DNA of 64,000 bases from Bacilli bacterium (GCA_041686735.1 JAWLDF010000013.1:5354-69353); one strand, 5' to 3'; positions 19,494 to 39,664 are shown, numbered from the stretch's first letter. Numbers and translations are program-made. Notes: generated from the letters alone by a model not told the origin.

Positions 19494-19558
19494 TGTTGGT
19501 GCCTGTCACCGACAAAGATCGACACTCGTAACATGAAATACAGAGGAGGAAACGTAAC

Positions 19559-23696: not shown

Positions 23697-24095
23697 ATGA
23701 AATGGAGTGGCTGGAAATTGTTCGCGGTAGCCGCTGCAGCCGTTCTCGTGATTTCCGGTTGTGGAGCTGCCAATGATCAGACGGAAGACCCCGCAAATGA
23801 TCAGAATCAGGAGACTCCTGCAGAAAATGGCGCAGCTGACGGAAATGGCGATACTGCTGCCGGGGATTTTGATCAAGCAGCAGCTGAACAGGTTTATCAG
23901 GCCAGTTGCCTTGCCTGCCACGGCGCTAATCTTGAAGGAAGTGTCGGTCCGCAATTGACTGATGTCGGAGCCCGTTTGAGTGTGGACGAGATTGCCGATA
24001 TCATTAAGAATGGACGTAACACCATGCCCGCACAGGCTCAGTTGTCTGATGAAGAGGTTCAGAATTTATCAGCATGGCTGGCAGCCAAGAAATAA
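23697..24095 (+). CDS. cccB: Lipoprotein cytochrome c (c551-like)
   Basis: Lipobox ISGCG, heme motif CLACH, distal MP; syntenic with cccB. Confidence 0.8.
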   Translation: MKWSGWKLFAVAAAAVLVISGCGAANDQTEDPANDQNQETPAENGAADGNGDTAAGDFDQAAAEQVYQASCLACHGANLEGSVGPQLTDVGARLSVDEIADIIKNGRNTMPAQAQLSDEEVQNLSAWLAAKK

Positions 24096-24099
24096 ATCG

Positions 24100-24184
24100 A
24101 AAAAAATAACAATCTGGATTTGATTTGCCTTTCCCTCACTTCGTTCGGACGGTCTGCATCAAATTCCAGATTGTTATTTTTTTT
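24100..24184 (+). repeat. Structured repeat copy A (left-type); also terminator of cccB
   Basis: Core GATTTGATTTGCCTTTCCCTCACTTCGTTCGGACGGTCTGCATCAAAT inside stem AAAAAAATAACAATCTGGA/TCCAGATTGTTATTTTTTT. Confidence 0.9.
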
Positions 24185-24310
24185 GGCCTCTTTTTTAAGA
24201 TATTGTTACTTTACGATGCCTTGATGATTCTCGAAGCAGAGTCGGTTCTTCCCTTGCTCGATGTGGGATCTTCTCTCCATCTCACACCTAGATGTAGAAG
24301 ACTTCCTTCG

Positions 24311-24400
24311 AAACATCCAAAAAATAAATAAACCGGATTTGATGCTGACCCGCCGAACGCATTGAGGGAAAGGCAAATCAATTCCGGTATTTTTATTTTT
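24311..24400 (-). repeat. Structured repeat copy B (right-type, inverted to A)
   Basis: Reverse complement core ATTGATTTGCCTTTCCCTCAATGCGTTCGGCGGGTCAGCATCAAAT; preceded by AAACATCCAAAAAATAAA. Confidence 0.9.
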
Positions 24401-24415
24401 CCCACATAAAAAACG

Positions 24416-24452
24416 GTTGAATTAATATACTCAAAAACGTATAATAATACAC
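24416..24452 (+). promoter_or_regulatory. SigA promoter of argC overlapped by tandem ARG (AhrC/ArgR) boxes
   Basis: TTGAAT-N17-TATAAT (24417-24445); TGAATTAATATACT and CGTATAATAATACA resemble TGNAT-W4-ATNCA. Confidence 0.75.
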
Positions 24453-24484
24453 AACTAAAAAGACAGATCAATCGGAGGAGAAAC

Positions 24485-25522
24485 ATGAAAGTCTCAATCA
24501 TCGGAACAACGGGCTACGGGGGAGCGGAACTGATACGATTTTTACAACATCATCCTCACCTCCAGATAGCAACCCTTTACGCCCATTCAAAAGAAGGAAT
24601 GAATATCGCGGAAGTTTTTCCCCATCTGAACGGCGTTCGCCGGGAATCACTGCAGGCCATTGATGTCGATCGCATTGCGGAAGAAGCGGATCTTGTTTTC
24701 TTTGCCACGCCTTCCGGAATCAGCAGTCAGCTTGCCCCGCAAATTCTCGACCGTGGCGTCAAAGTGATCGATCTTTCCGGAGATTTTCGTTTGCATACAC
24801 AGGAGATGTATCAAAAATGGTATGGGAAAGAGGGAACCGATTCTCCCTGGTTGCAGAAAGCGGTATACGGTCTGAGCGAGTGGGCGCGGGATCAGGTCCG
24901 TGAGGCGACCCTGATCGCCAATCCCGGCTGTTATCCCACCGCAACGTTGCTCGGGTTGATTCCCCTGCTTAAAAAGGGGATCATCGATCCGAACACGGTA
25001 ATTGTCGATGCCAAGTCCGGTGTATCCGGTGCGGGCAAGGGTCTCTCGCAGGCCACACATTTTTCCGAAGTCAATGACAGTATCTCTGCATACAAAGTGG
25101 GCCGCCATCAGCACATTCCGGAAATGGAACAGGTGGCAAGTGAGTATGCAGGGGAGAAGATGACACTTTCCTTCACTCCCCACCTCGTCCCAATGACACG
25201 CGGAATTTTATCCGTAATCTATGCGTCATTGACCGAGGGAATCGAGGCGAAACAATTGCAAAAGTGGTACGAGGAGGTCTATGCCGATTCTCCTTTTGTC
25301 CGAATTCGTGAGGCGGGCAGCCATCCGAAAACAAAAGAAGTGTACGGATCCAACTATTGCGATATCGCCGTTCATGTTGAGGAAAGAACGGGCAGGGTCA
25401 TCATCCTGTCTGTGATCGATAATCTGGTCAAAGGAGCGGCGGGACAGGCGATTCAAAACGCCAACCTCATGCTGGGCATCCCCGAAGAGACCGGATTGCC
25501 GATGGTACCGATTTTTCCATAA
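24485..25522 (+). CDS. argC: N-acetyl-gamma-glutamyl-phosphate reductase
   Basis: GTTGYGG, DLSGDFRL, ANPGCYPTA, SGVSGAG, IDNLVKGAAGQA. Confidence 0.97.
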   Translation: MKVSIIGTTGYGGAELIRFLQHHPHLQIATLYAHSKEGMNIAEVFPHLNGVRRESLQAIDVDRIAEEADLVFFATPSGISSQLAPQILDRGVKVIDLSGDFRLHTQEMYQKWYGKEGTDSPWLQKAVYGLSEWARDQVREATLIANPGCYPTATLLGLIPLLKKGIIDPNTVIVDAKSGVSGAGKGLSQATHFSEVNDSISAYKVGRHQHIPEMEQVASEYAGEKMTLSFTPHLVPMTRGILSVIYASLTEGIEAKQLQKWYEEVYADSPFVRIREAGSHPKTKEVYGSNYCDIAVHVEERTGRVIILSVIDNLVKGAAGQAIQNANLMLGIPEETGLPMVPIFP

Positions 25523-25617
25523 ATGAACTCAATCGGATGGTGCCGGAGAAGACGGGAAAAGCCCGGCGTCCGATCAATCAGATAAATGAAGAAGTGACGG
25601 GGCGGAGGGAAACCAGA

Positions 25618-26421
25618 ATGGATAAAGAGATTGTGGTGATCAAATGTGGCGGAAGCACACTCGATGCTCTGCCGGATTCTTTTTATGAAGAAATCGCCGC
25701 GTTAAGGGAGCGGGGCGTGGTACCGGTGATGGTGCATGGCGGAGGACCGGCCATATCCGGCATGCTGGAGCAAATGAACATCACCCCGCAGTTTGTTGAC
25801 GGGATGCGTGTGACCGATGAAGTGACGCTGCAGGTGGTGCAGATGGTGCTGATCGGGCGGATCAATAAACAGATCGTCGTCCGTATGCAGCAGGCCGCAG
25901 CCCGGGCGACAGGCGTCAGCGGGATTGACGGGGGAATACTACAGGCCGTGCCACTCAATGAATCACTCGGCTATGTTGGACGAATCACGCAGGTTAACCC
26001 GGGCCTGATCCATGACCTGATCGATAAAAATTACACTGTGGTCGTGTCTCCGCTGGCCTGTGATGGCGGGGGACAGGTGTACAACATCAACGCGGATACC
26101 GCAGCCGGTGCAATTGCAGCTGTCCTGGGGGCGCGCCAACTGGTGATGGTGACCGATGTGCCCGGGGTGATGAAACCGGACGCGGAGGGGAACAAACAGG
26201 TGTTGTCGCTCTTGTCCGAACAGGAAGTGGAATCGTTGATCGCAGACGGAGTGATTTACGGCGGTATGATTCCCAAGGTGAAGGCAGCGCTGGACGGTCT
26301 CAACCAGGGCGTTGCTGAAGTGGTCATCGTCGACGGTAAAGAGGACGGGATTTTAACGCAGGTGGTAGAACGGAAGCCTGTGGGAACACGGATTGTAAAG
26401 GACGGGGTGACGATATCATGA
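25618..26421 (+). CDS. argB: Acetylglutamate kinase
   Basis: VIKCGGS, VHGGGP, GMRVTD, YNINADTAA, GGMIPKV; start after GGAGG. Confidence 0.96.
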   Translation: MDKEIVVIKCGGSTLDALPDSFYEEIAALRERGVVPVMVHGGGPAISGMLEQMNITPQFVDGMRVTDEVTLQVVQMVLIGRINKQIVVRMQQAAARATGVSGIDGGILQAVPLNESLGYVGRITQVNPGLIHDLIDKNYTVVVSPLACDGGGQVYNINADTAAGAIAAVLGARQLVMVTDVPGVMKPDAEGNKQVLSLLSEQEVESLIADGVIYGGMIPKVKAALDGLNQGVAEVVIVDGKEDGILTQVVERKPVGTRIVKDGVTIS

Positions 26422-27686
26422 CGACAAACGAAAACCAGAATCAGAACCAGCAGAACAAACAGAGCCATTTGTTTTCCAACTATGCCAGATGGCCGCTGGC
26501 CATTGTGCGCGGCGAAGGACATTACGTCTGGGATGAGCAAGGCAAAAAATATCTCGATTTTGTGAGCGGGATTGCCGTAACTTCCCTCGGTCATGTGCCT
26601 CCTGCTGTAAAAGCAAGAGTCCAGGCGCAACTGGATACGCTGTGGCACAGTTCCAATCTGTTTCAACACCCGCTGCAGGAACAACTGGCAGTGGAACTGT
26701 GTGCCCTGAGCGGCGGACTGGACCGTGTGCTGTTCGTCAACAGCGGAGCCGAGGCCAATGAAGCGGCGATCAAACTGGTACGAAGATATATGCACAGCAT
26801 TCGCGGACAAAAAGAGCGATATGAAATCATCACTTTTGAGCAATCTTTTCACGGACGGACGCTGGCCACACTGACCGCCACCGGTCAGGCCAAAGTAAAG
26901 GACGGTTTTGCCCCGTTGCCTGAAGGATTCGTGACCGTTCCCTATCAGGATATGGAGGCGCTCAAACAGGCGATCACCCCCGGGACCGCAGCAATTATGC
27001 TGGAACTGGTTCAGGGAGAGGGCGGCGTCAATCCTGCCGATGCAGACTGGATCAAGCAGGTCAAGGAACTATGCGGGCAGCATGATCTTCTCTTAGTGAT
27101 CGATGAGGTGCAAACCGGCATCGGCCGTACGGGAACATGGTTTGCATACCAGCAGTACGACATTCTACCGGATATCGTCACCATCGCTAAAGGATTGGGA
27201 AGCGGTTTTCCGGTGGGAGCGATCATGGCGCGGGAGTACCTGGCGGAAGCATTTTCGGCCGGGACCCACGGCACCACATTCGGCGGCAACCCGCTGGCGA
27301 TGGCTGCCGGGCTGGGAACCCTGGAAACCATACGTGATCAGGAAATCCTCGATCAGGTACAGCGTACCGGGACCTATTTTATGCAAAAATTATCCGAGCT
27401 GAAACAGCACTCCCCGCTGGTAAAAGATATACGGGGGAAAGGACTTCTTATTGGAGTGGCCATGGCAATGCCGGTGGCCCGGGTGATTGAACTTGCGAGG
27501 GAAAAGGGTGTTCTATTGCTGTCGGCAGGCACGAACGTGTTAAGGATTCTGCCTCCTTTAACGGTTACCACACAGGAAATCGATCATGCCGTAGGCGTGC
27601 TGGCATCGGTTCTGGAGGAGGTACAAAAAGAAGCGGAATCCAACATCGCCGGCGGTTCGGAGGAAGTGAAGTCACCGGTCCGGTAA
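26418..27686 (+). CDS. argD: Acetylornithine aminotransferase
   Basis: YLDFVSGIAV, NSGAEANEAA, SFHGRT, DEVQTGIGRTG, HGTTFGGNP. Confidence 0.95.
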   Translation: MTTNENQNQNQQNKQSHLFSNYARWPLAIVRGEGHYVWDEQGKKYLDFVSGIAVTSLGHVPPAVKARVQAQLDTLWHSSNLFQHPLQEQLAVELCALSGGLDRVLFVNSGAEANEAAIKLVRRYMHSIRGQKERYEIITFEQSFHGRTLATLTATGQAKVKDGFAPLPEGFVTVPYQDMEALKQAITPGTAAIMLELVQGEGGVNPADADWIKQVKELCGQHDLLLVIDEVQTGIGRTGTWFAYQQYDILPDIVTIAKGLGSGFPVGAIMAREYLAEAFSAGTHGTTFGGNPLAMAAGLGTLETIRDQEILDQVQRTGTYFMQKLSELKQHSPLVKDIRGKGLLIGVAMAMPVARVIELAREKGVLLLSAGTNVLRILPPLTVTTQEIDHAVGVLASVLEEVQKEAESNIAGGSEEVKSPVR

Positions 27687-27713
27687 GATGGGTCGATCAA
27701 GGGGTGGAGAGAG

Positions 27714-28865
27714 ATGAAGAAAGAAAAGGCAAACGGATATTTACTGTTAAGCACGGGAGATGTTTTTGAGGGAAAATGGTTCGGAGCTCCGCCGACAGGT
27801 GAGGCGGTTGAAGGGGAAATGGTGTTTAACACGGGGATGACCGGATATCAGGAAGTGATGACCGATCCGTCCTATGCCGGGCAGATCGTCACTTTTACCT
27901 ATCCGCTCATCGGCAACTACGGTATCAGCGACCTTGATTTTGAAAGTGTCCGCCCTGCCCTGCATGGGATTATCATCAGTGAACTCTGCGAAGAACCGAG
28001 CCATTTTCAAGCGCAGACATCCCTGTCTGAACTGGCTGAACAGTTCGGGATTTCCGGACTTTATGATATCGATACACGCGCCCTGACCCGCCTTATCCGA
28101 CAACACGGGGAATTGTACGGCAAAATCACGATTGACCCGCAGGAAGCGGAACGCTGCAAAGTAGACGGAGGGTTTGAGGCAAAGTGGCGCACGGATTGCG
28201 TGGCGTCCGTGTCCGGTCGCGTGATCCAAACGTTTGAACCTGCTTCCGTCGGTTCGGCGGATGCCGGTGCGGTCGCAGTTGACGTGCCCCATGTGGTATT
28301 AATTGATTTCGGCCACAAAAAATCGATTTGTGATGCGCTTTTGCAGGAGGGTTGTCGCGTTACGATCGTTCCTTATGATACCACGGCGGAACAAATCGAG
28401 GACCTTGCGCCGGACGGGATTGTATTATCCAACGGACCGGGGGACCCCAAAGATGTTTCGTTTGTTTTGCCGACCATTCAGGCTCTTGCTGATCACTATC
28501 CCATGTTCGGAATCTGCCTTGGTCATCAGTTGATCGCTCTTGCCCATGGATGTGATACGGTGCGGCTTCCCTTCGGACACCGCGGCAGTAATCACCCGGT
28601 CAAAGAAGTGGCAAGCGGCAAAGTTTATATCACATCGCAAAACCACGGTTACACCGTGCATGAAGATTCCGTGCCACCGCAGGAATGGGTGGTTTCCCAC
28701 CGCAATGTGAATGACGGCTCGGTGGAAGGGATCGAACATCGTATTAAACCTGTGTCGGGTGTGCAGTTTCATCCGGAAGCCCATCCCGGACCGCAGGATA
28801 CCCATCATTTGTTTAAACGCTTTATCACGCAATGTATGTCCACGGGGGAGAAGAGTTATGCCTAA
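27714..28865 (+). CDS. carA: Carbamoyl-phosphate synthase small subunit (arginine-specific)
   Basis: FNTGMTGYQE, LSNGPGDP, GICLGHQ, QFHPEA. Confidence 0.96.
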   Translation: MKKEKANGYLLLSTGDVFEGKWFGAPPTGEAVEGEMVFNTGMTGYQEVMTDPSYAGQIVTFTYPLIGNYGISDLDFESVRPALHGIIISELCEEPSHFQAQTSLSELAEQFGISGLYDIDTRALTRLIRQHGELYGKITIDPQEAERCKVDGGFEAKWRTDCVASVSGRVIQTFEPASVGSADAGAVAVDVPHVVLIDFGHKKSICDALLQEGCRVTIVPYDTTAEQIEDLAPDGIVLSNGPGDPKDVSFVLPTIQALADHYPMFGICLGHQLIALAHGCDTVRLPFGHRGSNHPVKEVASGKVYITSQNHGYTVHEDSVPPQEWVVSHRNVNDGSVEGIEHRIKPVSGVQFHPEAHPGPQDTHHLFKRFITQCMSTGEKSYA

Positions 28866-31800
28866 ATTTGAACATATTAAAAAAGTGCTCGTGATCGGCT
28901 CCGGGCCGATTGTGATCGGGCAGGCGGCGGAGTTTGATTATGCAGGTACACAGGCCTGCCTCGCTCTCAAGGAAGAGGGCGTGGAGGTGGTACTGGTCAA
29001 CAATAATCCCGCCACGATCATGACCGATCACGAGATCGCCGATCGTATTTATATGGAACCGTTAACCGTCGCTTCCCTCTCCCGTATTATTGAGAAAGAA
29101 CGACCAGACGGGATCCTGCCTACCCTGGGCGGGCAAACGGGGTTGAATCTGGCGGTTTCTCTCTCCGACGCGGGGGTGCTGGATAAGTATGACGTGATCC
29201 TGCTGGGGACTCCGCTGGAAACGATTCGAAATGCCGAAGATCGGGAAGCGTTTAAATCGATGATGCAAAAAATCGGTGAGCCGGTACCGGAAAGCCAGAC
29301 GGTGAACACGGTGAAGGATGCACTGGAGTTTGCGGACTCAATCGGATATCCCGTGATTGTGCGCCCCGCTTATACCCTGGGTGGAGCCGGCGGCGGAATT
29401 GCTGCTGATGCGGGGGAACTGCTGGCGGTAGCCAAACGGGGAATTGATGCCAGCCCGATCGGACAGATTTTGGTGGAACGAAGTGTAAAAGGGTGGAAAG
29501 AGATCGAATATGAAGTGATGCGCGATGCCGGGGATACCTGCATCATCGTCTGCAATATGGAAAATATGGATCCGGTGGGCATTCATACCGGCGACAGCAT
29601 CGTAGTCGCCCCCTCACAGACGCTGAATGACCGTCAGTACCAGATGCTGCGGTCGGCAGCTTGTAAAGTGATCCGATCCCTCGGGGTGGTGGGGGGCTGC
29701 AATATCCAGTATGCGCTCGACCCGGAGAGTGATCAGTATTATCTGATCGAGGTCAACCCGCGGGTGAGTCGTTCCAGTGCCCTCGCCTCCAAGGCGACCG
29801 GTTATCCGATTGCACGGATCGCGGCCAAACTGGCCCTCGGTTATCATCTCGATGAAGTGACCAATCCGGTGACGGGCCACACCTACGCCAGTTTTGAACC
29901 GGCGATCGACTATGTGGTGGCGAAAATTCCGCGCTGGCCCTTTGACAAGTTTCCGCTGGCTGACCGCCGCTTAACCACACAGATGAAGGCGACGGGAGAA
30001 GTGATGGCCCTGGCCCGCAATCTGGAAGCGGCTCTGTTAAAAGCGGTACGTTCATTGGAAATCGGCGCTGATCATCTGTGGCTGCCCCATCTTTCCTCGC
30101 TTTCCCATGAGCATTTAAAAAAGGGACTGGTGGATGCGACGGACGAACGACTTTTTCTGCTGGCGGAAGTCTTTCGCAGGGGCTGGAGAGTTGCCGACAT
30201 CCACGGCCTGACCGAGATCGATCCCTTTTTCCTGCAAAAAATTGCCCGCATTGTTGAGCTGGAGCAGGCGCTGGCCACTTACACCTGGGAGGATGTGCCC
30301 CGGGAATTGCTGACGGAAGCGAAACAGAGGGGATTTTCCGATGCCTGGCTGGCGCGCAGTTTTTCCGTATCGGAGCATGAGGTTCGCTCGAGATGGCGTG
30401 AGTGGAACCGTGCTCCCGCCTACAAGTTGGTGGATACCTGTGCCGCGGAGTTTGATGCGGAGACGCCTTACTACTATTCGACCTGGCAGGGACTGGATGA
30501 AGTCGAGGTCTCCCAGGCGGGAAAAAAGGTGCTGGTGATCGGCTCCGGTCCGATCCGGATCGGGCAGGGGGTTGAGTTCGATTATTGTTCGGTTCACGCC
30601 GCGCAGTCCCTGAAGCGAAACGGGGTGGAGGCGGTTGTGGTCAACAATAATCCGGAAACGGTCAGCACCGATTTTGAAACGGCGGATCAATTGTATTTTG
30701 AACCGTTGACGGCGGAAGATGTGATCCACATCGCCGATAAAGAGAAGGTAGACGGTGTGATGGTTCAGTTCGGCGGCCAGACAGCGATCAATCTGGCGGC
30801 TGCCCTGGCCGATGCGGGACTCCATCTCTACGGAACACCGCTGGTCAGTATTGACCGCGTGGAAGACCGCGATTTGTTTTATCAGATGTTGCGGGAACTG
30901 GGTATTCCCCATATTGCGGGAACAGGGGTGCATACGGAGGCGGAGGCCCTTGCAGCAGCAGAGGAGATCGGTTATCCGGTGTTGATTCGTCCTTCATATG
31001 TGATCGGCGGTCGCGGCATGGTGGTTTTGTACGATGAGCAGCAGCTGCGACAATATCTGAGTGAGTTGCAACAGTGGGCAAGTGTGGAGCAATTGTTTCC
31101 GCTGTTGATTGATAAATATGTGGCAGGAAAAGAAGTGGAACTGGATGCCGTTTGTGACGGAGAGGATGTATTGATTCCGGGGATTTTTGAGCATGTGGAA
31201 CGGGCCGGGGTTCACTCGGGTGACAGTACGGCGGTATTCCCGTCTCCTTCCTTGTCGGATTCGCACAAGCAGATGATTGCGGATTACACACGAAAAATTG
31301 TGCGTGAGCTCGGTGCGGTCGGACTGATTAATATCCAGTGGGTGTGGGATCAGCAGGCCGATGTTATTTATGTGCTTGAGGTGAATCCGCGTGCTTCGCG
31401 AACGGTTCCGATCGTAAGCAAAATCACCGGTATTCCCATGGTTGATCTGGCGGTACAGTGCCAGCTGGGACGGTCGTTACGGAATTTGATGATGGAGTTT
31501 GAAGGTGGTCCGGAAGCTGAGGGGGCCGTTGGAACAGTCGGGTACGAAGATACTCTCGGATTGATGCCGGATATTCCTTACTATGCGGTGAAAGCACCCG
31601 TTTTTTCGACGGTGAAGTTGAATGGCGTAGATCCGGCGCTGGGACCGGAGATGAAATCAACCGGCGAGAGTCTCGGGCTGGGATTGACGGTTGAGGAAGC
31701 GATGAGCAAGGCACTGCACTGGAAAGAGGATGTCAACCCGCCGTTGCAAAAGGGAGATGCCATATTTTTATCCCTGTCGGATGGAGATAAGGCGGATGGC

Positions 31801-32223
31801 GAGGAGATCGTTTCTCACATTAAGGTGTTGGAACTGGAAGTGAGTGCGACGAAGGGAACGGCAGCGTGGCTCGAGCAACAGGGAGTGGAGGTGCAGCGAA
31901 TCATTCATGATGTGGAGGAGTTACGGCAGTGGATTTCGGAGTATCCGGAAAAACCTCCGCTGCAAATGATGTGTATTACGCCTACCCGCGGCAATGATGC
32001 GAAAAGGGCAGGTTTTGCGTTGCGACAGTTATCGCTGCAGTATCAGATTACCTGTTTTACGGCGCTGGATACGGTGAAGGCATTTCTTGGGCTTTCTGCC
32101 GCTGCGGCTGGTATTGCTGAAGTCGGTGGTACCACTGGTGCCAGGGAACCTCAACCGCGAGAATTGATGGAATATGGTCGTTTGGCTGAAAAAAATCGGG
32201 AGAAGGAAGGTGCTCACATATGA
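28858..32223 (+). CDS. carB: Carbamoyl-phosphate synthase large subunit (arginine-specific)
   Basis: MPK..VIGSGPIVIGQAAEFDYAG, duplicated GSGPIRIGQGVEFDY, EVNPR twice. Confidence 0.97.
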   Translation: MPKFEHIKKVLVIGSGPIVIGQAAEFDYAGTQACLALKEEGVEVVLVNNNPATIMTDHEIADRIYMEPLTVASLSRIIEKERPDGILPTLGGQTGLNLAVSLSDAGVLDKYDVILLGTPLETIRNAEDREAFKSMMQKIGEPVPESQTVNTVKDALEFADSIGYPVIVRPAYTLGGAGGGIAADAGELLAVAKRGIDASPIGQILVERSVKGWKEIEYEVMRDAGDTCIIVCNMENMDPVGIHTGDSIVVAPSQTLNDRQYQMLRSAACKVIRSLGVVGGCNIQYALDPESDQYYLIEVNPRVSRSSALASKATGYPIARIAAKLALGYHLDEVTNPVTGHTYASFEPAIDYVVAKIPRWPFDKFPLADRRLTTQMKATGEVMALARNLEAALLKAVRSLEIGADHLWLPHLSSLSHEHLKKGLVDATDERLFLLAEVFRRGWRVADIHGLTEIDPFFLQKIARIVELEQALATYTWEDVPRELLTEAKQRGFSDAWLARSFSVSEHEVRSRWREWNRAPAYKLVDTCAAEFDAETPYYYSTWQGLDEVEVSQAGKKVLVIGSGPIRIGQGVEFDYCSVHAAQSLKRNGVEAVVVNNNPETVSTDFETADQLYFEPLTAEDVIHIADKEKVDGVMVQFGGQTAINLAAALADAGLHLYGTPLVSIDRVEDRDLFYQMLRELGIPHIAGTGVHTEAEALAAAEEIGYPVLIRPSYVIGGRGMVVLYDEQQLRQYLSELQQWASVEQLFPLLIDKYVAGKEVELDAVCDGEDVLIPGIFEHVERAGVHSGDSTAVFPSPSLSDSHKQMIADYTRKIVRELGAVGLINIQWVWDQQADVIYVLEVNPRASRTVPIVSKITGIPMVDLAVQCQLGRSLRNLMMEFEGGPEAEGAVGTVGYEDTLGLMPDIPYYAVKAPVFSTVKLNGVDPALGPEMKSTGESLGLGLTVEEAMSKALHWKEDVNPPLQKGDAIFLSLSDGDKADGEEIVSHIKVLELEVSATKGTAAWLEQQGVEVQRIIHDVEELRQWISEYPEKPPLQMMCITPTRGNDAKRAGFALRQLSLQYQITCFTALDTVKAFLGLSAAAAGIAEVGGTTGAREPQPRELMEYGRLAEKNREKEGAHI

Positions 32224-33209
32224 GTGTGGAAGTGGTGAAGATGGTAACGGCGGATCTGGATAAAGAACAGCGGATCAAGGAACAGTTGAAGGGTCGTGAT
32301 TTTTTGACGCTGGCCGATTTTGACCGGGAGGAACTGGCCTACCTGCTCGATCTGGCTGCGCGCCTGAAGGAGATCCAAAAATCGGGTGCAACCTATCATC
32401 CGTTGAAGGGGAAAACGCTGGGCATGATTTTTGAAAAATCCTCCACTCGTACTCGGGTGTCGTTTGAGGTGGGGATTTATCAGCTGGGCGGACAGGGGAT
32501 GTTCCTCAGTAGTCGCGACCTGCAGATCGGACGTGGCGAGCCCGTTTCCGACACCGCGAAGGTGTTGTCCCGTTATCTGGACGGCATCATGATCCGGACT
32601 TTCTCCCATGAGGGTGTGGAAGAGCTGGCGGCCAACGCGACGATTCCGGTGATTAACGGATTGACGGACATGTTCCATCCCTGTCAGGTGATGGCCGATC
32701 TGCAGACGATCCAGGAGCAAAAAGGGGAGCTGCAGGGGCTGAAACTGGCATTTGTGGGTGACGGAAACAACATGGCTCACTCGTTGTTACTTGGGGCAGC
32801 GATTTTTGGGATGGATATTGCGATTGCATCGCCTAAGCAGGATCAGCCTGATCCGGTTGTCGTTGCGCGGGCGAAAGAATTTGCCGCTGAATCCGGCAGT
32901 CAGGTTGTGATTACGGACGATCCGGTGGAAGCGGTGCAAGGTGCTGATATCGTCTATACCGATGTATGGGCCAGCATGGGGCAGGAGGCTGAGCAGGCTG
33001 AGCGGGCGAAGCGTTTTGCTCCGTATCAGGTGAATGCGGAACTGGTGCAGCATGCGAAGAACGATTATATTTTTATGCATTGTCTCCCGGCCCATCGCGG
33101 TGAGGAAGTGAGTGCAGACGTGATCGACGGGGCTCACTCCGTTGTGTTTGACCAGTCGGAAAACCGTCTCCATGTGCAAAAAGCGATCATGGCGGCGTTG
33201 ATGGGGTAG
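32220..33209 (+). CDS. argF: Ornithine carbamoyltransferase
   Basis: FEKSSTRTR, HPCQ, YTDVWASMG, HCLP. Confidence 0.97.
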   Translation: MSVEVVKMVTADLDKEQRIKEQLKGRDFLTLADFDREELAYLLDLAARLKEIQKSGATYHPLKGKTLGMIFEKSSTRTRVSFEVGIYQLGGQGMFLSSRDLQIGRGEPVSDTAKVLSRYLDGIMIRTFSHEGVEELAANATIPVINGLTDMFHPCQVMADLQTIQEQKGELQGLKLAFVGDGNNMAHSLLLGAAIFGMDIAIASPKQDQPDPVVVARAKEFAAESGSQVVITDDPVEAVQGADIVYTDVWASMGQEAEQAERAKRFAPYQVNAELVQHAKNDYIFMHCLPAHRGEEVSADVIDGAHSVVFDQSENRLHVQKAIMAALMG

Positions 33210-33482
33210 TTTGGACGTGGGATTTGTACTGAGATTTGATTTTTGAGGGGATGTTTTAAGGGTATGATGGGGGAGTCGGCATCTCTGGTCGGTCAGGTGA
33301 CCTCAGGTTGGATCGTATGTTTGCCGGGATACCGGCTCCGCAGGATCTCCCATAGTTGAGTGGTAATGGTGAATGACTCAATTTACCGTAAGATTTCCCT
33401 TGCGTGATTGTTGGGGTATGGTGTATTCTATGTAGTGTTCACCGTTGTTCAGGTGTCTTTGATTGAGTGTTAGATTGTTTGT

Positions 33483-33571
33483 GCCCGGGTGGCGGAATTG
33501 GCAGACGCACAGGACTTAAAATCCTGGGTCTCGTGAGAGACGTGGGGGTTCAAGTCCCCCCCTGGGCACCA
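33483..33571 (+). tRNA. tRNA-Leu(TAA)
   Basis: GCCCGGG/CCTGGGC acceptor, CAGGA-CT-TAA-AA-TCCTG anticodon arm, long variable arm, TTCAAGT T-loop, CCA. Confidence 0.96.
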
Positions 33572-33849
33572 TCTTTATCTGCGAGACAATTGTAATTTTA
33601 TAACATGAAACTTTCTTTCGCTGGGTGGAACTGTTATGAAAAGAGAAAGTGACCGGTAATAAATTAAGACGAAAAAAAACACCCTATTTAACGAAAATTG
33701 CTCAAATCGCTAAATTTAAGACGAAAAATTCGTCTTAATTCATTCCTGATGTTCTCGTAAACCTCGACCCAAATTCTGGTCCCATCAAATTCACCCTGTC
33801 ACTTATCAATGAACCCAAAAATCAGTAAAAATGTTCATCATCCCAAGTC

Positions 33850-33878
33850 TTGTAAAGCCGTTTCAAACGTGGTATCAT
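33850..33878 (+). promoter_or_regulatory. SigA promoter of tRNA-Asn/Ser
   Basis: TTGTAA-N17-TATCAT with TG extended -10. Confidence 0.65.
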
Positions 33879-33921
33879 ACCTTTTGTAACGGTTGGAAGC
33901 ATACTATATTGCATCATTCAT

Positions 33922-33996
33922 TCCGCAGTAGCTCAATGGTGGAGCAACCGGCTGTTAACCGGTAGGTTGCAGGTTCGAGTCCTGCCTGCGGAGCCA
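33922..33996 (+). tRNA. tRNA-Asn(GTT)
   Basis: TCCGCAG/CTGCGGA acceptor, ACCGG-CT-GTT-AA-CCGGT anticodon arm, GGTTCGAGTCC, CCA. Confidence 0.97.
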
Positions 33997-33999
33997 TTC

Positions 34000-34092
34000 G
34001 GAGGAGTACCCAAGTCTGGCTGAAGGGAGCGGTCTTGAAAACCGCCAGGGCGTTCACGCGTCGCGGGGGTTCGAATCCCTCCTCCTCCGCCA
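34000..34092 (+). tRNA. tRNA-Ser(TGA)
   Basis: GGAGGAG/CTCCTCC acceptor, GCGGT-CT-TGA-AA-ACCGC, long variable arm, GGTTCGAATCC, CCA. Confidence 0.97.
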
Positions 34093-34141
34093 TAATAGAA
34101 CTCAATGAAACGCAAAGTAAATAAACCGGCAAGAGTAAAGC

Positions 34142-34283
34142 AGGGATTTGAACCCGCTCTCCGAGGAGAGAAGGGGTTCATTGGAAACACGACGAGGACA
34201 GGGCCGAAGGGCCGTGCCGAGTCGATGTTGGATTCCGGAGACGAGCCGATGGAATCGGCGAAGGGAAGGTATCCCTCCTCCTC
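34142..34283 (+). repeat. tRNA-linked branched hairpin element ending in a 13-bp copy of the tRNA-Ser 3' end
   Basis: ATCCCTCCTCCTC at 34075-34087 and 34271-34283; GGGATTTGAACCC 34143-34155 is antisense to the T-arm; four stems. Confidence 0.75.
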
Positions 34284-34312
34284 ATATTATGGAGAAAGGT
34301 TGAATTCCCACG

Positions 34313-35305
34313 ATGACTAAATTACCACGAAGGATAAAGTTGGCTCATCAACCGACACCGATAGAAAAACTTGACCGGTTGTCGGATTTGCTTGATGGAC
34401 CGGAAATATATATTAAACGGGATGATTTGACCGGGAGTGAAATATCCGGCAATAAGATTCGCAAACTCGAATTTTCCCTTGCCGAAGCATTGGATCAGGG
34501 CGCCGATGTACTGGTTACTTGTGGAGGAATACAATCAAATCATGCACGGGCTACAGCCGTTGCGGCTGCAAAGCTGGGTATCTCATCTTGCTTGATTTTA
34601 TCGGGAACAGGACGTGAACAACTGACCGGAAATTATTTTATTGACGTTCTGGTCGGCGCCAAAATCAAACTGGTCACCCCCGAGCGGTACCGCAATGAAA
34701 TAGACGCTGTTTTTGCTGAAACAAGAGCTGAACTGGAAGAACAAGGGTATAAACCTTATCTCATTCCCCTGGGTGCCTCCAACGGAATTGGAACCTTTGG
34801 ATATGTTAATGCCATGAAAGAGATAAGCCAGCAGGAAAAAGACCTGGGAGTGAGTTTCAATAAGATTGTCATTGCTGTGGGTTCGGGAGGTACTTATGCA
34901 GGACTGCTTTTAGGCAGCAAACTGATGGGCCTGGAAAAAGAGATATATGGTATGAACGTTGCGCATAATGCTGACTACTTTACAAACAGGATTGAGGAAA
35001 TCCTGATCGAAGCAGTGGATTACATGGAAGACAATGTAAACATCAGCAGGGATGAAATTCACATTTTGGACGGATATGTAGGTCCCGGATATGGGCTTAA
35101 TAATCAGGAACAAATCGAAACTGTAAAAAAGGTGGCCCGGTTGGAAGGAGTCGTTCTAGATCCTGTGTATACAGGCAAGGCCATGCATGGACTGATTGAA
35201 GAAATATACAAAGGTCGGGTGTTCAGCAAAGAGGACAAGGTGCTTTTCATTCATACCGGTGGACAATATGGGTTGTTCCCCTTTGCAGACAGGTTTGAAG
35301 AGTGA
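34313..35305 (+). CDS. D-cysteine desulfhydrase / ACC deaminase family PLP enzyme
   Basis: PTP, IKRDDLTG..SGNKIRKLEF, GGIQSNHAR, GSGGTYAG, LDPVYTGKA, FIHTGG. Confidence 0.9.
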   Translation: MTKLPRRIKLAHQPTPIEKLDRLSDLLDGPEIYIKRDDLTGSEISGNKIRKLEFSLAEALDQGADVLVTCGGIQSNHARATAVAAAKLGISSCLILSGTGREQLTGNYFIDVLVGAKIKLVTPERYRNEIDAVFAETRAELEEQGYKPYLIPLGASNGIGTFGYVNAMKEISQQEKDLGVSFNKIVIAVGSGGTYAGLLLGSKLMGLEKEIYGMNVAHNADYFTNRIEEILIEAVDYMEDNVNISRDEIHILDGYVGPGYGLNNQEQIETVKKVARLEGVVLDPVYTGKAMHGLIEEIYKGRVFSKEDKVLFIHTGGQYGLFPFADRFEE

Positions 35306-35329
35306 TATTAATAATCGTTGCATAAAGCT

Positions 35330-35359
35330 TCCCTCCGTTAAGTCGTGAGGGATTTTTTT
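35330..35359 (+). terminator. Terminator after desulfhydrase gene
   Basis: TCCCTC...GAGGGA followed by T7. Confidence 0.65.
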
Positions 35360-35377
35360 ACATATTGTATTCGGAAA

Positions 35378-35394
35378 TTTGAATAAATATGCGT
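35378..35394. promoter_or_regulatory. Single ARG box upstream of argG
   Basis: TTTGAATAAATATGCGT. Confidence 0.5.
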
Positions 35395-35540
35395 CACAAC
35401 TGCAATAAACAACCACTTGTCTGTTTTTCAGATCAAATCCGTAGTGGAACATATTGTCGTTCTATTTCCACCGATTTACTCAATGTCGTAACGACTCATT
35501 ACCCCGGCCCACATTCGACAAAATTATTTCACTTACAGGT

Positions 35541-35578
35541 ATTGAATTTTTATTAATAATATTGCATAATTATTTCAT
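35541..35578. promoter_or_regulatory. Tandem ARG boxes upstream of argG
   Basis: ATTGAATTTTTATTAAT-N3-ATTGCATAATTATTTCAT. Confidence 0.7.
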
Positions 35579-35705
35579 GCTCATTTTCATGCTTATGCTC
35601 TTTTTCACCTTGCACATGTTTCGCATCAATACCAAACTATTGTTCCAATCATTATAATCGTGATATGAAGATAAAAGGATTTAATCAAAGGAGAGGAGTA
35701 GTACC

Positions 35706-36959
35706 ATGGCTAAAGAAAAAGTGGTTCTGGCGTACTCGGGAGGTCTGGATACCTCCGTTGCCATCAAGTGGTTGCAGGATACTTATCATTACGACGTGAT
35801 TGCGGTCGCAGTAGACGTCGGGGAGGGAAAAGACCTCGACTTTATCAAAGAAAAGGCGCTCAAGGTGGGAGCAGTCAAATCCATCGTGGTGGATGCACGT
35901 GAACTGTTCAGCAAGGAGTACCTTCTGCCGGCTTTAAAAGCCAACGCCATGTATGAAGGAAAATACCCGCTGGTGTCTGCACTGTCGAGACCGCTCATTT
36001 CAAAAATCCTGGTGGACATTGCCGAGAAGGAAGGCGCCGTGGCTGTCGCACACGGATGTACGGGGAAAGGGAATGACCAGGTCCGTTTTGACGTGTCGAT
36101 TACCGCACTCAACCCCAACCTCAAAATCGTCGCTCCCGTACGGGAATGGGCAATGTCGCGTGAAGAAGAAATCGAATATGCGAAAAAGAACGGGATTCCC
36201 ATTCCGATCGATTTAGATAACCCGTACAGTATTGACCAGAACCTGTGGGGACGCAGCTGCGAGTGCGGCGTGCTGGAAGATCCGTGGGTCGAGCCGCCGA
36301 AAGGAGCCTACGATCTCACCAACCATCTCGAGGATACACCGGATCAGCCGGACGAAATTGAAATCACTTTTGAAAAAGGGGTACCGGTGGCTCTGAACGG
36401 TGAACAGAAGCCGCTGTACGAAATCGTTGCCGACCTGAACAAGGTTGCTGGGAAGCACGGCGTGGGACGGATCGACCATGTAGAGAACCGTCTAGTCGGG
36501 ATCAAATCACGTGAAGTGTACGAAGCGCCGGCAGCGATGACACTGATCCTGGCCCATCGCGAACTGGAATCGATTACCCAGCCGCGGGAAGTGGCTCAGT
36601 TTAAACCGATTATCGAACATAAAATCTCTCAAGTGATATATGAAGGTCTGTGGTTTTCGCCGATCATGGATGCCCTGCAGGCTTTCGTCGAGGAAACCCA
36701 GAAGCACGTGAGTGGAACAGTGCGTGTCAAGTTGTTTAAAGGTCACGCCATCGTGGTGGGGCGTAAATCGGATCATTCGCTTTATAGCTTTGAGCTGGCT
36801 ACCTATAATCCGGACGATCAATTTGACCATAAAGCAGCCCTCGGGTTTATCAAGCTGTGGGGACTGCCAACCGAAGTTTATTCCAAGGTCAATCCCGACC
36901 AGCGCAACAAGGGTGGCAAAGCAGTGATTGTCGACGAAAAGGAAGATGTGAAAGCATGA
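35706..36959 (+). CDS. argG: Argininosuccinate synthase
   Basis: [37 protein letters not shown]. Confidence 0.98.
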
Positions 36960-38377
36960 AGTTGTGGGGCGGACGTTTCACCAGAGCAACCAACGAACTC
37001 GTAGACGAATATACGGCCTCCATCTATTTTGATCAGCAACTGGCCGAACAGGATATCACCGGCTCACTTGCCCACGTGAAGATGCTGGGTAAGTGCGGCA
37101 TCCTGAGCGGGGAAGAAGTGGAACAGATTTCACAGGGCCTCAAAACGGTAGCGCAAAAGATCGCTGCCGGTGAGGCTTCTTTTACGGTAGCCAACGAAGA
37201 TATTCATATGAATATCGAAAAAATGCTGATCGATGAGATCGGTCCTGTCGGGGGGAAATTACACACCGGCCGCAGCCGCAACGATCAGGTGGCGCTGGAT
37301 ATGCATCTTTACCTGCGCGAACAGGTGCTGGAGCTGATCGGACTATTGATCAATCTGCAAAAGGCGTTAATCAAACAGGCCAAAGAGAATCTCGACACGA
37401 TTCTGCCGGGCTACACCCATCTGCAACGGGCCCAGCCGGTTTTGTTCGCCCACCATTTGATGGCCTATTGTGCCATGTTTCAGCGGGATATCGAACGCCT
37501 GCAGGATAGCTGGAAAAGAATCAATGTCATGCCCCTCGGAGCCGGGGCCCTTGCCGGAACCACTTTTCCGATCGACCGAGAGTATGTGGCCGAATTGCTC
37601 CGTTTTGATGAGGTTTATGAAAACAGCATGGACGCGGTCAGTGACCGTGATTTCATCGTGGAGTTCTTATCCCATGCTTCCCTGATCATCGCCCACCTCT
37701 CCCGTTTGTCGGAGGAGCTGGTACTGTGGTCGAGCCAGGAGTTTTCTTTTATTGAACTGGACGATTCCTTCTGTACGGGAAGCAGTATTATGCCGCAAAA
37801 AAAGAATCCCGACGTTGCCGAACTTGTGCGGGGAAAAACGGGACGGGTGTACGGCAACCTCATCGGCATGTTGACGGTCCTGAAAGGGTTACCCCTCTCA
37901 TACAACAAAGATATGCAGGAAGATAAAGAGGGGATGTTTGACACCGTAAAAACGCTGCACGGGGCGCTCTCCCTGTTTGCGCCCATGATCGAAACGATGC
38001 AGGTAAGAAAAGAGAAAATGGCGCAGGCGGTCAAACAGGATTTTTCCAATGCGACCGATCTTGCCGATTACCTGGTGAACAAAGGGATGCCATTCCGTGA
38101 AGCCCACGAAGTAGTGGGCAAGACGGTGTTATACTGCATCCAAAACGGGAAGTATCTGGCGGATATGAGCTTTGAGGAATACCGCCGCTTTTCCGGTTTG
38201 TTCGATGAGGATATCTATCAGGCGATCGATATCACCACCGTCGTCAACGCGCGCAATGTGCAGGGCGGGACGGCACGTCCACAGGTGGAAAAACAGATCC
38301 GACTTGCAGAAGAGAAGCTGATCGGACATAATCAATGGTGGCAACAACATGTCGATAAGATTAAAATCGACCTGTAA
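36956..38377 (+). CDS. argH: Argininosuccinate lyase
   Basis: [28 protein letters not shown]. Confidence 0.98.
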
Positions 38378-38410
38378 CTGAAATCAAATAATGAAGGGAA
38401 TGTAGCCATC

Positions 38411-38842
38411 ATGAAAAAAGGAAAGATTGTACTCGAGCGCGGCGGGGAAGTGGAGATTCAATTTTTTGATGAGGATGCTCCCAACACCGTTGCAAACTTC
38501 GAAAAGCTGGCCAATGACGGTTTTTACGACGGCTTGACTTTTCATCGGGTGATTCCCGGATTTGTCGCCCAGGGAGGATGTCCTGTCGGAAACGGAACCG
38601 GGGATGCCGGATATACGATTCCCTGTGAGATCAACCCGAACAAGCATGAGCGCGGTGTGATCGCCATGGCCCATGCCGGACGAGATACGGGCAGTTGCCA
38701 GTTTTATATCACCTATGAGCCCCAGCCTCATCTAGACGGACACCATACCGTCTTTGGCAAGGTGATCAGTGGCATGGAGCATGTGGATCAGATTCTTCAG
38801 GGTGATCGAATGAAAGAAGTCAGGGTGTGGAACGAAGATTAA
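38411..38842 (+). CDS. ppiB: Cyclophilin-type peptidyl-prolyl isomerase
   Basis: [38 protein letters not shown]. Confidence 0.94.
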
Positions 38843-38847
38843 TCTTT

Positions 38848-38926
38848 CAAAAAAACCATCTGGATTTGATTTGCCTTTCCCTCATTTCGTTCGGCCGGTC
38901 AACATCAAATCCAGATGGTTTTTTTG
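38848..38926 (+). repeat. Structured repeat copy C (left-type); also terminator of ppiB
   Basis: Core GATTTGATTTGCCTTTCCCTCATTTCGTTCGGCCGGTCAACATCAAATC inside stem CAAAAAAACCATCTG/CAGATGGTTTTTTTG. Confidence 0.9.
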
Positions 38927-39203
38927 TGGATTATTATTCATTTTTCGCGGTACACATTTGACGTGATCCCACCAATTTAAATGAATCGCATAGACGATTA
39001 CGTGACTAACCCGTAACACGACGCGCTCCTGTAAGAACTTTATTTCTTTTAAACGATTCAATTTCCGATTTAACTTTGTTGTTTTGGGATCTTCCAACTT
39101 GTGAATGAGAGATAAAGTGGATGCAATGATTGATACTCAATAATGCCATCCCCAGCCATACAATAGATTAATCCGCTCTTCTTTTGACATAGAATTTCCT
39201 ACC

Positions 39204-39293
39204 AAACATCCAAAAAATAAAAAAGCTTGATTTGATGCAGACCGGCCGAACGCAGTGAGGGAAAGGCAAATCAAATCAAGCTTTTTTATTTTT
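39204..39293 (-). repeat. Structured repeat copy D (right-type, inverted to C)
   Basis: Reverse complement core GATTTGATTTGCCTTTCCCTCACTGCGTTCGGCCGGTCTGCATCAAATC; preceded by AAACATCCAAAAAATAAA as in copy B. Confidence 0.9.
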
Positions 39294-39664
39294 GCATATT
39301 TATACGAAAAATTTTTAGTGAATTATTGAATTTTTCTGAAAACGGTGTATAATAGGAAAAAAGAACTCGACAAAATAAGCGCATCTCTTCATCAACTGAC
39401 ATCTTCTAGCATTTTTCAATGATCATTCGGAACGATTGACCTCCTTCAACGGGCGCAAAATTTGTTCTTATTCACTCCTTTATAGTCCTAAAGCCCTATA
39501 AAAAAATGTTGAAAATAGGAATCCTGCCCCATGACAGCACGACAAAAACTGAGATATAATGACACATAATTTTAAATGCATTAATAGATGAAGGATATTG
39601 GCCAGTGGATTGCTGTCGAATTTTCGTTTTTTCCGTTGCTAAAACGGAAGAAAGGAGGGTGTGT

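Follow-up and report, generated by a model that had tools for sequence, protein, structure and literature searches.

Dispersed hairpin repeats are common, and outside the repetitive extragenic palindromic (REP) sequences and their RAYT enzymes the working form and the trans-acting partner are usually unknown. The ends of IS200/IS605 insertion sequences (ISs) are hairpins on the same (top) strand, and miniature inverted-repeat transposable elements (MITEs) such as Correia, RUP, ERIC and bcr1 are gene-less units of less than 800 bp with inverted ends, many intergenic copies and insertion polymorphism. According to two reports, plasmid pAMbeta1 (Inc18) carries the site ssiA downstream of its origin, and PriA of Bacillus subtilis binds single-stranded DNA (ssDNA) containing ssiA (PMC5703833, PMC10804225). 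For oriV of RSF1010 (IncQ), another report describes two single-strand initiation hairpins, ssiA and ssiB, on opposite strands of one short module (PMC8567376). Here, a family of hairpin repeats found in a 64,000-nt stretch of a Bacilli bacterium genome (GCA_041686735.1 JAWLDF010000013.1:5354-69353; the whole stretch is called the window below) is compared with these systems. It is a real, mobile and gene-less hairpin repeat family. The best-supported mechanism, which we put forward tentatively, is a priming or primosome signal in ssDNA shared with Inc18 plasmids; instead of being an ordinary terminator, the core may thus act as a signal in single-stranded DNA.

Repeat units and their typed ends

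The window represented C13:5354-69353 of a 3.47-Mb genome in 92 contigs (G000; G+C content 44.7%, completeness 100%). A preliminary description, made from the sequence of the window, had reported four copies of one core arranged as two inverted pairs. This was confirmed: a 24-nt core pattern matched exactly four times, at 24125+, 24353-, 38871+ and 39246-, and in 0 of 100 shuffles of the window, and folding of copies A to D as ssDNA gave z values of -3.4 to -8.5 against shuffles. Hairpins A and C each began 5 nt past a stop codon, that of a cytochrome c gene (23697-24095) and that of a cyclophilin gene (38411-38842), respectively, as had also been described. The features of the two units were as follows.

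24096-24184, + strand: copy A, left-type hairpin, pyrimidine-rich core on the + strand (nhmmer 87.9 bits, C13:29449-29537; fold z -6.3)
24134-24148, - strand: apical mini-hairpin of copy A on the purine strand, CCGAAC-GAA-GTGAGG with tandem G.A pairs (from sequence and covariation)
24185-24315, no strand: interior of unit A-B, 131 nt, G+C content 0.44, longest methionine-started open reading frame (ORF) 30 aa
24290-24318: R1 flank module, the right end of the A-B interior
24316-24401, - strand: copy B, right-type hairpin, purine-rich core on the + strand (nhmmer 80.5 bits; fold z -3.4)
24353-24367, + strand: apical mini-hairpin of copy B, CCGAAC-GCA-TTGAGG, one broken pair
24417-24445, + strand: promoter-like site for the semialdehyde dehydrogenase (argC-like) gene that follows, outside unit A-B and conserved in the sister genus
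38844-38933, + strand: copy C, left-type hairpin (nhmmer 85.0 bits; fold z -8.5)
38880-38894, - strand: apical mini-hairpin of copy C on the purine strand, CCGAAC-GAA-ATGAGG
38926-38985, + strand: L flank module (GTGGATTATT..ACATTTGACGTGATCCCACCAATTTAAATGAA), also found in units on other contigs
38934-39207, no strand: interior of unit C-D, 274 nt, G+C content 0.37, longest methionine-started ORF 47 aa
39176-39211, - strand: R1 flank module, reading GGATGTTTGGTAGGAAATTCTATGTCAAAAGAAGAG on the - strand
39208-39297, - strand: copy D, right-type hairpin, purine-rich core on the + strand (nhmmer 88.6 bits; model R1 85.6 bits; fold z -6.6)
39246-39260, + strand: apical mini-hairpin of copy D, CCGAAC-GCA-GTGAGG

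Throughout G000, an nhmmer profile search yielded 53 copies above 50 bits, and a degenerate core pattern likewise gave 53 matches, with 0 for the reversed control. Among 19 instances of neighbouring copies no more than 1.5 kb apart, 15 were "+ then -", the top strand carrying the pyrimidine core at the left and the purine core at the right, one was "- then +" and three were direct. Thirty copies thereby make up 15 convergent inverted pairs, forming units of 276 to 718 bp. The 15 convergent interiors were 95 to 533 nt long, had a G+C content of 0.34 to 0.51 and contained no methionine-started ORF longer than 59 aa. No gene was found between the paired hairpins in any of these pairs, and no recombinase gene in G000 was flanked by a hairpin pair. 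The units are thus small, non-coding, multicopy and inverted at their ends, as MITEs are.

The preliminary description had further proposed that left and right ends are typed. For arms and inner flanks this held throughout the genome. The R flank carried the motif GGATGTTTCGCAGGAAGTTCTACATCAAAAGAAG / GGATGTTTCGCAGG.. or its short form ..CAAAAGAAG, and the L flank read GGATTATT..; the arm ..CCAGC.. accompanied the R flank in 15 copies and the L flank in 2, and the arm ..CCAGA.. the L flank in 9 copies and the R flank in none. The loop triplet, also supposed to be typed, was not: L copies had GCA in 7 cases and GAA in 6, R copies GCA in 13 and GAA in 5. The triplet is independent of arm and flank typing, and its typing is therefore true only inside the window.

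Unit interiors had the L and R modules in common, the remainder being diverged. The R module retained a Shine-Dalgarno-like stretch and ATG-AAG-AAG, with unrelated short ORFs behind; a small toxin or secreted peptide encoded in the R flank was considered and rejected, for the MKK start was conserved and the ORFs following it were not. Three units on other contigs carried the same truncated insert directly after the L hairpin, which shows that whole units were copied, not lone hairpins. With 15 typed convergent pairs, shared inner modules, no gene inside, and both window sites empty in the sister genus (see below), the proposal that the left and right hairpins form a non-autonomous unit multiplying as a whole is supported.

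The truncated insert, about 100 nt long, resembled the 5' end of a group II intron (GCGTGCCCAG..GCTAGTCGGTGAAAGTCCG) and stood directly after GGATTATT of L-type hairpins, at C23:28708-28830 (L002 1209-1354), C21 about 19400-19525 and C4 about 89277-89340. It scored 31.5 bits with Rfam group-II-D1D4-4 (cut-off 49), no reverse transcriptase ORF followed it, and it may represent a truncated intron once inserted after a terminator-like hairpin and then copied along with the unit. An isolated group II domain V-VI (RF00029, 44.5 bits, above the cut-off) was located at C83:2301-2375, with no reverse transcriptase gene nearby and with an AraC/GyrI-like gene and a GSDH-like gene as neighbours; it was the sole RF00029 match in G000, on a contig other than those with the inserts. 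A group II intron homing site was accordingly dropped as an explanation of the repeat, given the score below cut-off, the lack of a reverse transcriptase ORF and the location of the sole RF00029 match elsewhere, and the insert was treated as a passenger. Two further observations were made near repeat units. Behind copy C24:7845+ came about three units of about 36 nt in tandem (C24:7934-8050), each beginning with the R-flank motif TTTTTTGGATGCCTGTT.., and a sub-threshold Guanidine-I riboswitch match (48.9 bits, cut-off 63) was found at C47:11601-11759 (L006 3102-3260), about 700 nt from a unit.

The apex and the Inc18 origin-proximal hairpin

The apex of each hairpin was an asymmetric core of about 30 nt, composed of a mini-hairpin of six pairs with two sheared G.A pairs and, behind it, GAAAGGC. 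An alignment (A1) was made from 66 distinct sequences of four sources, namely G000, Brevibacillus dissolubilis (G031), an Anaerocolumna metagenome-assembled genome (MAG; G032) and one metagenome contig. When the purine strand was folded, 95.1% of the mini-hairpin cells were paired, compared with 88.2% in shuffles and 11 to 53% in slid controls, and 26 cells were doubly changed versus 7.8 in shuffles. Two pairs covaried, pair 24-36 (CG 41, UA 15, UG 10) and pair 27-33 (AU 45, GC 11, other 10), and the middle G.A position was invariant in 93 of 93 distinct contexts and A.G in 91 of 93. The commonest B. dissolubilis variant gave G.T on the purine strand and C.A on the other. Since the other strand would have T.C and C.T mismatches, and C.A for this variant, the purine-rich strand is the folded one. 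The hairpin CC-GA-AC-GNA-GT-GA-GG with tandem G.A pairs, first described from the four window copies, thereby gained support from the two covarying pairs and the invariant G.A and A.G. The outer stem covaried too, with 87% of cells paired over 19 pairs and double changes in 12 of them, although relatedness inflates such figures. Within and between lineages, the conserved part is the apex of about 30 nt, not the stem.

Stems in G000 were 19 to 25 bp long and flanked by A and T runs, with an apex of about 33 nt. An intrinsic-terminator scan called none of the four window hairpins, because the loop is too large for the rule of this simple scan; it is probable that the long A/T-flanked stems serve as transcription terminators of the genes before them as well. 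A search of Rfam gave no family for the core at gathering score: over the whole window such a scan returned only three tRNAs, none on the hairpins, and E-value scans of 24050-24450 and six other loci placed only sub-threshold noise of the microRNA type over them.

Copies were compared by BLAST with 72,556 plasmids. Copy A matched 13 records, all of them Enterococcus plasmids, the best over 35 nt at 88.6% (E 2e-3), and the copies of the Anaerocolumna MAG and B. dissolubilis matched the same place, so that three independent queries (G000, G032, G031) agreed. The matched site lay within a 145-nt block present in 443 plasmid records, 414 from Enterococcus and the rest from Lactococcus, Streptococcus and others. 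In the Inc18 plasmids pDB101 and pGB354 the block followed repR, and the core was located 126 to 150 nt beyond the box TGCCATTACATTTAT. A covariance model (R1), built from chromosomal copies only with no plasmid sequence, ranked this site first in all five plasmid loci, at 23.9 to 27.4 bits versus 18.8 for the next best, and all of its top plasmid matches were on the strand with repR sense. The plasmid core likewise caps a hairpin whose stem is A/T-rich. A match between the core and a described repeat, which the preliminary description had named as a refutation of its reading of the family, was thus found unexpectedly, with the Inc18 origin-proximal hairpin and not in Rfam.

The abstract of Bruand 1995 reportedly places ssiA some 150 bp past ori, on the lagging template, and we take the origin-proximal hairpin of Inc18 plasmids to occupy the place to which ssiA, a primosome assembly site dependent on PriA, DnaB, DnaD and DnaI, was mapped. 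At the origin, RepE binds TGCCATTACATTTAT; the cleaved rep transcript serves as primer for Pol I, and the D-loop that results is a substrate of PriA, DnaB, DnaD and DnaI (PMC5703833). Since the rep transcript primes Pol I and makes the D-loop, the displaced strand is the rep-sense strand and hence the strand with the purine core. Judged by sequence, the core and its strand matched those of the Inc18 site: both have CYGAAC-GNA-GTGAGG-GAAAGGC on the displaced purine-rich strand at the tip of a hairpin. They differ in number and stem: next to the plasmid origin there is a single copy with a weak stem, whereas the chromosome of G000 carries 53 copies with long stems, most of them paired in inverted orientation. 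Only the plasmid copy is a hairpin placed as a primosome site would be, on the lagging-strand template shortly past a plasmid origin. In pQY182 the core was kept though its arms differed, about 490 nt past a gene for a PriCT-domain protein, and no RepE box was found in this plasmid; the core is conserved between diverged Inc18-type replicons with differing arms.

An ssoA-type origin was also considered, on account of RSB- and CS-6-like strings near the Enterococcus copy that were compared by eye with the motifs in PMC4598088, and was dropped because such strings were absent from the chromosomal copies. In the E. faecium plasmid pCBA710401 (L087 3001-3060) the core ended after ..GTTCAGTC, being cut by a sequence starting with GGTTCTGTTGC, and the cut-off adjoined a transposase-like reverse ORF. 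The interrupting sequence resembles the end of an IS6-family element.

Distribution, mobility and decay

The distribution was patchy. An exact 30-mer core was present in B. dissolubilis and the Anaerocolumna MAG, and with up to 3 mismatches allowed these carried 43 and 108 copies, respectively, with 0 in controls. The core also occurred in one metagenome contig, and in each of these three sources it capped an unrelated stem. Four hundred other genomes of the phylum gave just three single matches, at 2 mismatches, and the core was found neither in 5 other genomes of the B. dissolubilis genus nor in viral contigs (0 matches) or a phage collection. A search of 151 genomes of the class with model R1 matched three, G000, B. 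dissolubilis and the sister genus (G001), the latter with 9 matches at 33 to 49 bits that had a diverged core and were missed by the strict pattern. All four isolated copies examined in the sister genus had their own long stem. B. dissolubilis also has convergent pairs, and many of its apparent singletons have a diverged partner; no T runs were observed at its copies. Within the genus Anaerocolumna, the family occurred in at least 7 of 21 genomes. A literature search on Brevibacillus MITEs and on repeated primosome assembly sites found nothing relevant, and the consulted part of RepRanger (PMC12306157) had no entry bearing on this family. Three direct tandem diverged hairpins with a 190-nt period, unlike the inverted pairs of G000, were observed in the sister genus at C3:126515-126958 (L153).

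Insertion polymorphism was evident at orthologous sites in the sister genus and in Anaerocolumna. In the sister genus, the sites after the cytochrome c gene (cccB) and the cyclophilin gene (ppiB), where the preliminary description had suggested looking for empty counterparts, both held ordinary terminators and no repeat, and the promoter of the argC-like gene was conserved at the repeat-free site. The gyrB-gyrA spacer was aligned in 8 Anaerocolumna genomes, of which four had a copy in the same orientation (G032, G551, G564, G561), one in the opposite orientation (G547) and three none (G563, G548, G559). The core of this copy was decayed in G564 and G561, a mark of a selfish element, and in G551 it contained a 16-nt insertion. 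Copies of the MAG were located in operon spacers (gyrB-gyrA, mutS-mutL, V-ATPase), next to unrelated genes. The spacer alignment suggests arm-to-arm conversion as one possibility by which stems stay paired yet differ between copies. At about position 4167 of C163 in the MAG (L057), the core was inverted relative to two slightly different arms ("flip/flop"), a state to be expected if the arms recombine or the hairpin is processed.

The enzyme proposed in the preliminary description, an HUH transposase of the Y1/RAYT type encoded elsewhere, did not come to light. Pfam Y1_Tnp (PF01797), covering IS200/IS605 TnpA and RAYT, gave 0 matches in G000, in the sister genus and in B. dissolubilis. The nearest 1.5 kb or so around either of the two matches in the Anaerocolumna MAG contained no family hairpin (best 11.9 bits). 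A pair flanking such a gene, or any other recombinase gene, was likewise looked for in vain, interiors being 533 nt at most. No assembled multicopy IS was detected in G000 and no repeat above 250 bp is an IS, the longest repeats being those of amidase paralogues, MCP paralogues and one TniB/integrase fragment. Neither the REPIN/RAYT nor the IS200/IS605 reading is supported, because there is no flanked Y1 gene, no multicopy IS and no pair-enclosed gene; a Y1 enzyme could conceivably have been lost in the past.

Orientation was biased in two genomes. For 23 unpaired copies of G000, the purine strand coincided with the G-rich strand in 17 cases (p 0.035) and with the ORF-rich strand in 16; for 25 copies of the MAG the corresponding counts were 3 (p 1.6e-4) and 4. 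The MAG bias argues against an RNA role of the purine strand; selection against the active orientation or strand-coupled insertion would fit it.

Candidate explanations

The explanation preferred here, tentatively, is a selfish non-autonomous repeat of the MITE/REP kind whose apex is an ssDNA hairpin recruiting the host priming machinery. The unit would multiply whole, as a left hairpin, a decaying non-coding interior of 95 to 533 nt and an inverted right hairpin. Its apex, predicted to fold only on the purine-rich strand, would be the same motif as the Inc18 hairpin of the displaced strand (lagging template), and because of this shared motif the working form is most likely an ssDNA hairpin recruiting host priming; the lagging template would then carry CTGAACGAAGTGAGGGAAAGGC within the mapped ssiA. 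A convergent pair would have an active purine hairpin at the 3' side of either strand and hence one priming site per strand. A primer made there might be extended across the unit, and a helicase loaded there might move outward. A precedent for two sites on opposite strands is the ssiA/ssiB pair of RSF1010, which shares no sequence likeness with the core; the IncQ sites measure 40 nt, are recognised by the RepB' primase of the plasmid itself and occur once per replicon. We infer that chromosomal copies bind PriA or prime synthesis, and likewise infer how copies move.

Several points weigh against this explanation. That the plasmid hairpin is the mapped ssiA would follow from position and strand, not from a published ssiA sequence, and the plasmid match is short (35 nt, 88.6%, E 2e-3; R1 E-values 1e-4 to 1e-3). 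The match counts as one independent event, and it could go back to an insertion of the mobile element into an ancestor of the Inc18 plasmids. Selection does not maintain individual copies, as their cores are decayed (G564, G561) or interrupted (G551). Pairs were found only in G000 and B. dissolubilis, the sister genus and the MAG having mostly single hairpins. The orientation biases of G000 and the MAG are opposite, no explanation covering both, and the MAG bias speaks against a priming site that serves the host on the lagging template. By eye, no target-site duplication was visible, the empty sites being too diverged to show one. Neither a mobilising enzyme nor a parent element was found, the search for a parent element being exhaustive in G000 only.

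An alternative is that the family is an ordinary MITE whose transposase, of the DDE class or another, has escaped identification or been lost; the apex would be the binding site of this enzyme, and the Inc18 hairpin one more insertion, with or without priming activity. The inverted terminal hairpins, small size, lack of an ORF, many copies and presence/absence polymorphism agree with it, as do the decay of copies at single sites and the R flank, where a Shine-Dalgarno-like stretch, ATG-AAG-AAG and divergent short ORFs look like the remnant 5' end of a lost gene; moreover, ssiA is reportedly dispensable for pAMbeta1 replication. It is nevertheless considered somewhat unlikely. A transposase site normally lies in conserved duplex terminal repeats, whereas in this family the stems are different in each genome, and even in each copy of the sister genus, and the loop is what is conserved, with covariation of the single-strand type, and the core is conserved between diverged Inc18-type replicons despite different arms. 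Also, no repeat of more than 250 bp in G000 is an IS and no convergent pair encloses more than 533 nt. Compared with Correia, RUP, ERIC and bcr1, each end is a long hairpin with a conserved asymmetric apex, with neither a parent IS nor a target duplication found. A further reading, unlikely in our estimate, would dispense with a transposase altogether: a selfish element living off the host primosome, its apex being an assembly site of the PriA type, with convergent pairs acting like origins that load helicases outward on both strands once the interior is single-stranded, and with the Inc18 ssiA as a captured copy.

A structured RNA acting in transcripts, as a terminator, a stabiliser of mRNA 3' ends or operon spacers, or a protein-binding motif, would account for copies directly after stop codons or in operon spacers, which must be transcribed, for the A and T runs flanking G000 stems and for a G.U-compatible variant, and in Inc18 plasmids the rep transcript likewise has the sense of the purine strand. 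It is regarded as decidedly unlikely, for the pyrimidine strand was in the sense transcript for 22 of 25 MAG copies, and this strand cannot form the covarying mini-hairpin because of its C.A, U.C and C.U mismatches; B. dissolubilis copies lack T runs, no Rfam family matched at gathering score and the terminator scan called 0 of 4. Very improbable, and already weakened by the search for the enzyme, is a REP/REPIN-like or IS200/IS605-derived element whose ssDNA is cut and joined by a Y1 HUH enzyme (RAYT/TnpA) encoded elsewhere. It would account for a hairpin of the ssDNA type, G.A pairs and GNA loop included, for inverted pairs and operon-spacer positions, and for the strong bias of MAG orientation with the direction of replication and transcription, as known for ssDNA transposons. 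Like REP/REPIN-RAYT systems, the family consists of short extragenic hairpin repeats with inverted pairs, the structured single strand apparently being the relevant form. However, PF01797 was absent from G000, G001 and G031 and its two matches in G032 were not flanked by family hairpins; the 15 inverted pairs have different, typed ends 95 to 533 nt apart, unlike compact REPINs, and it is the loop that is conserved, not the stem. The same-strand hairpins of an IS200/IS605-derived PATE were not observed either, the cores being on opposite strands in 15 of 19 neighbouring pairs.

The conserved part of the family is a small single-strand structure, supported by covariation, that is common to distant Firmicutes and to a plasmid site with a biochemically defined activity. 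If the priming explanation is true, chromosomes would be seeded with dozens of primosome assembly sites, and the core would provide the first consensus of sequence and structure for such sites in Gram-positive bacteria and hint at the origin of the Inc18 ssiA. If it fails, the family would still be a clean new MITE-like repeat with an unusual conserved loop and a free stem.

Some minor features lay apart from the hairpins. In G000, C52:252-2944 and C48:17658-18762 contained a 99% identical duplicated segment with a tyrosine recombinase and a TniB-like AAA ATPase, which may be left over from a Tn7-like element and seems to have no connection with the hairpins. In the window, copy B was followed by the semialdehyde dehydrogenase (argC-like) gene and copy D by a Spo0E-like ORF and then NAPRTase, and the three tRNA genes (Rfam 52 to 73 bits) were clustered at 33483-34089, between the two repeat units.

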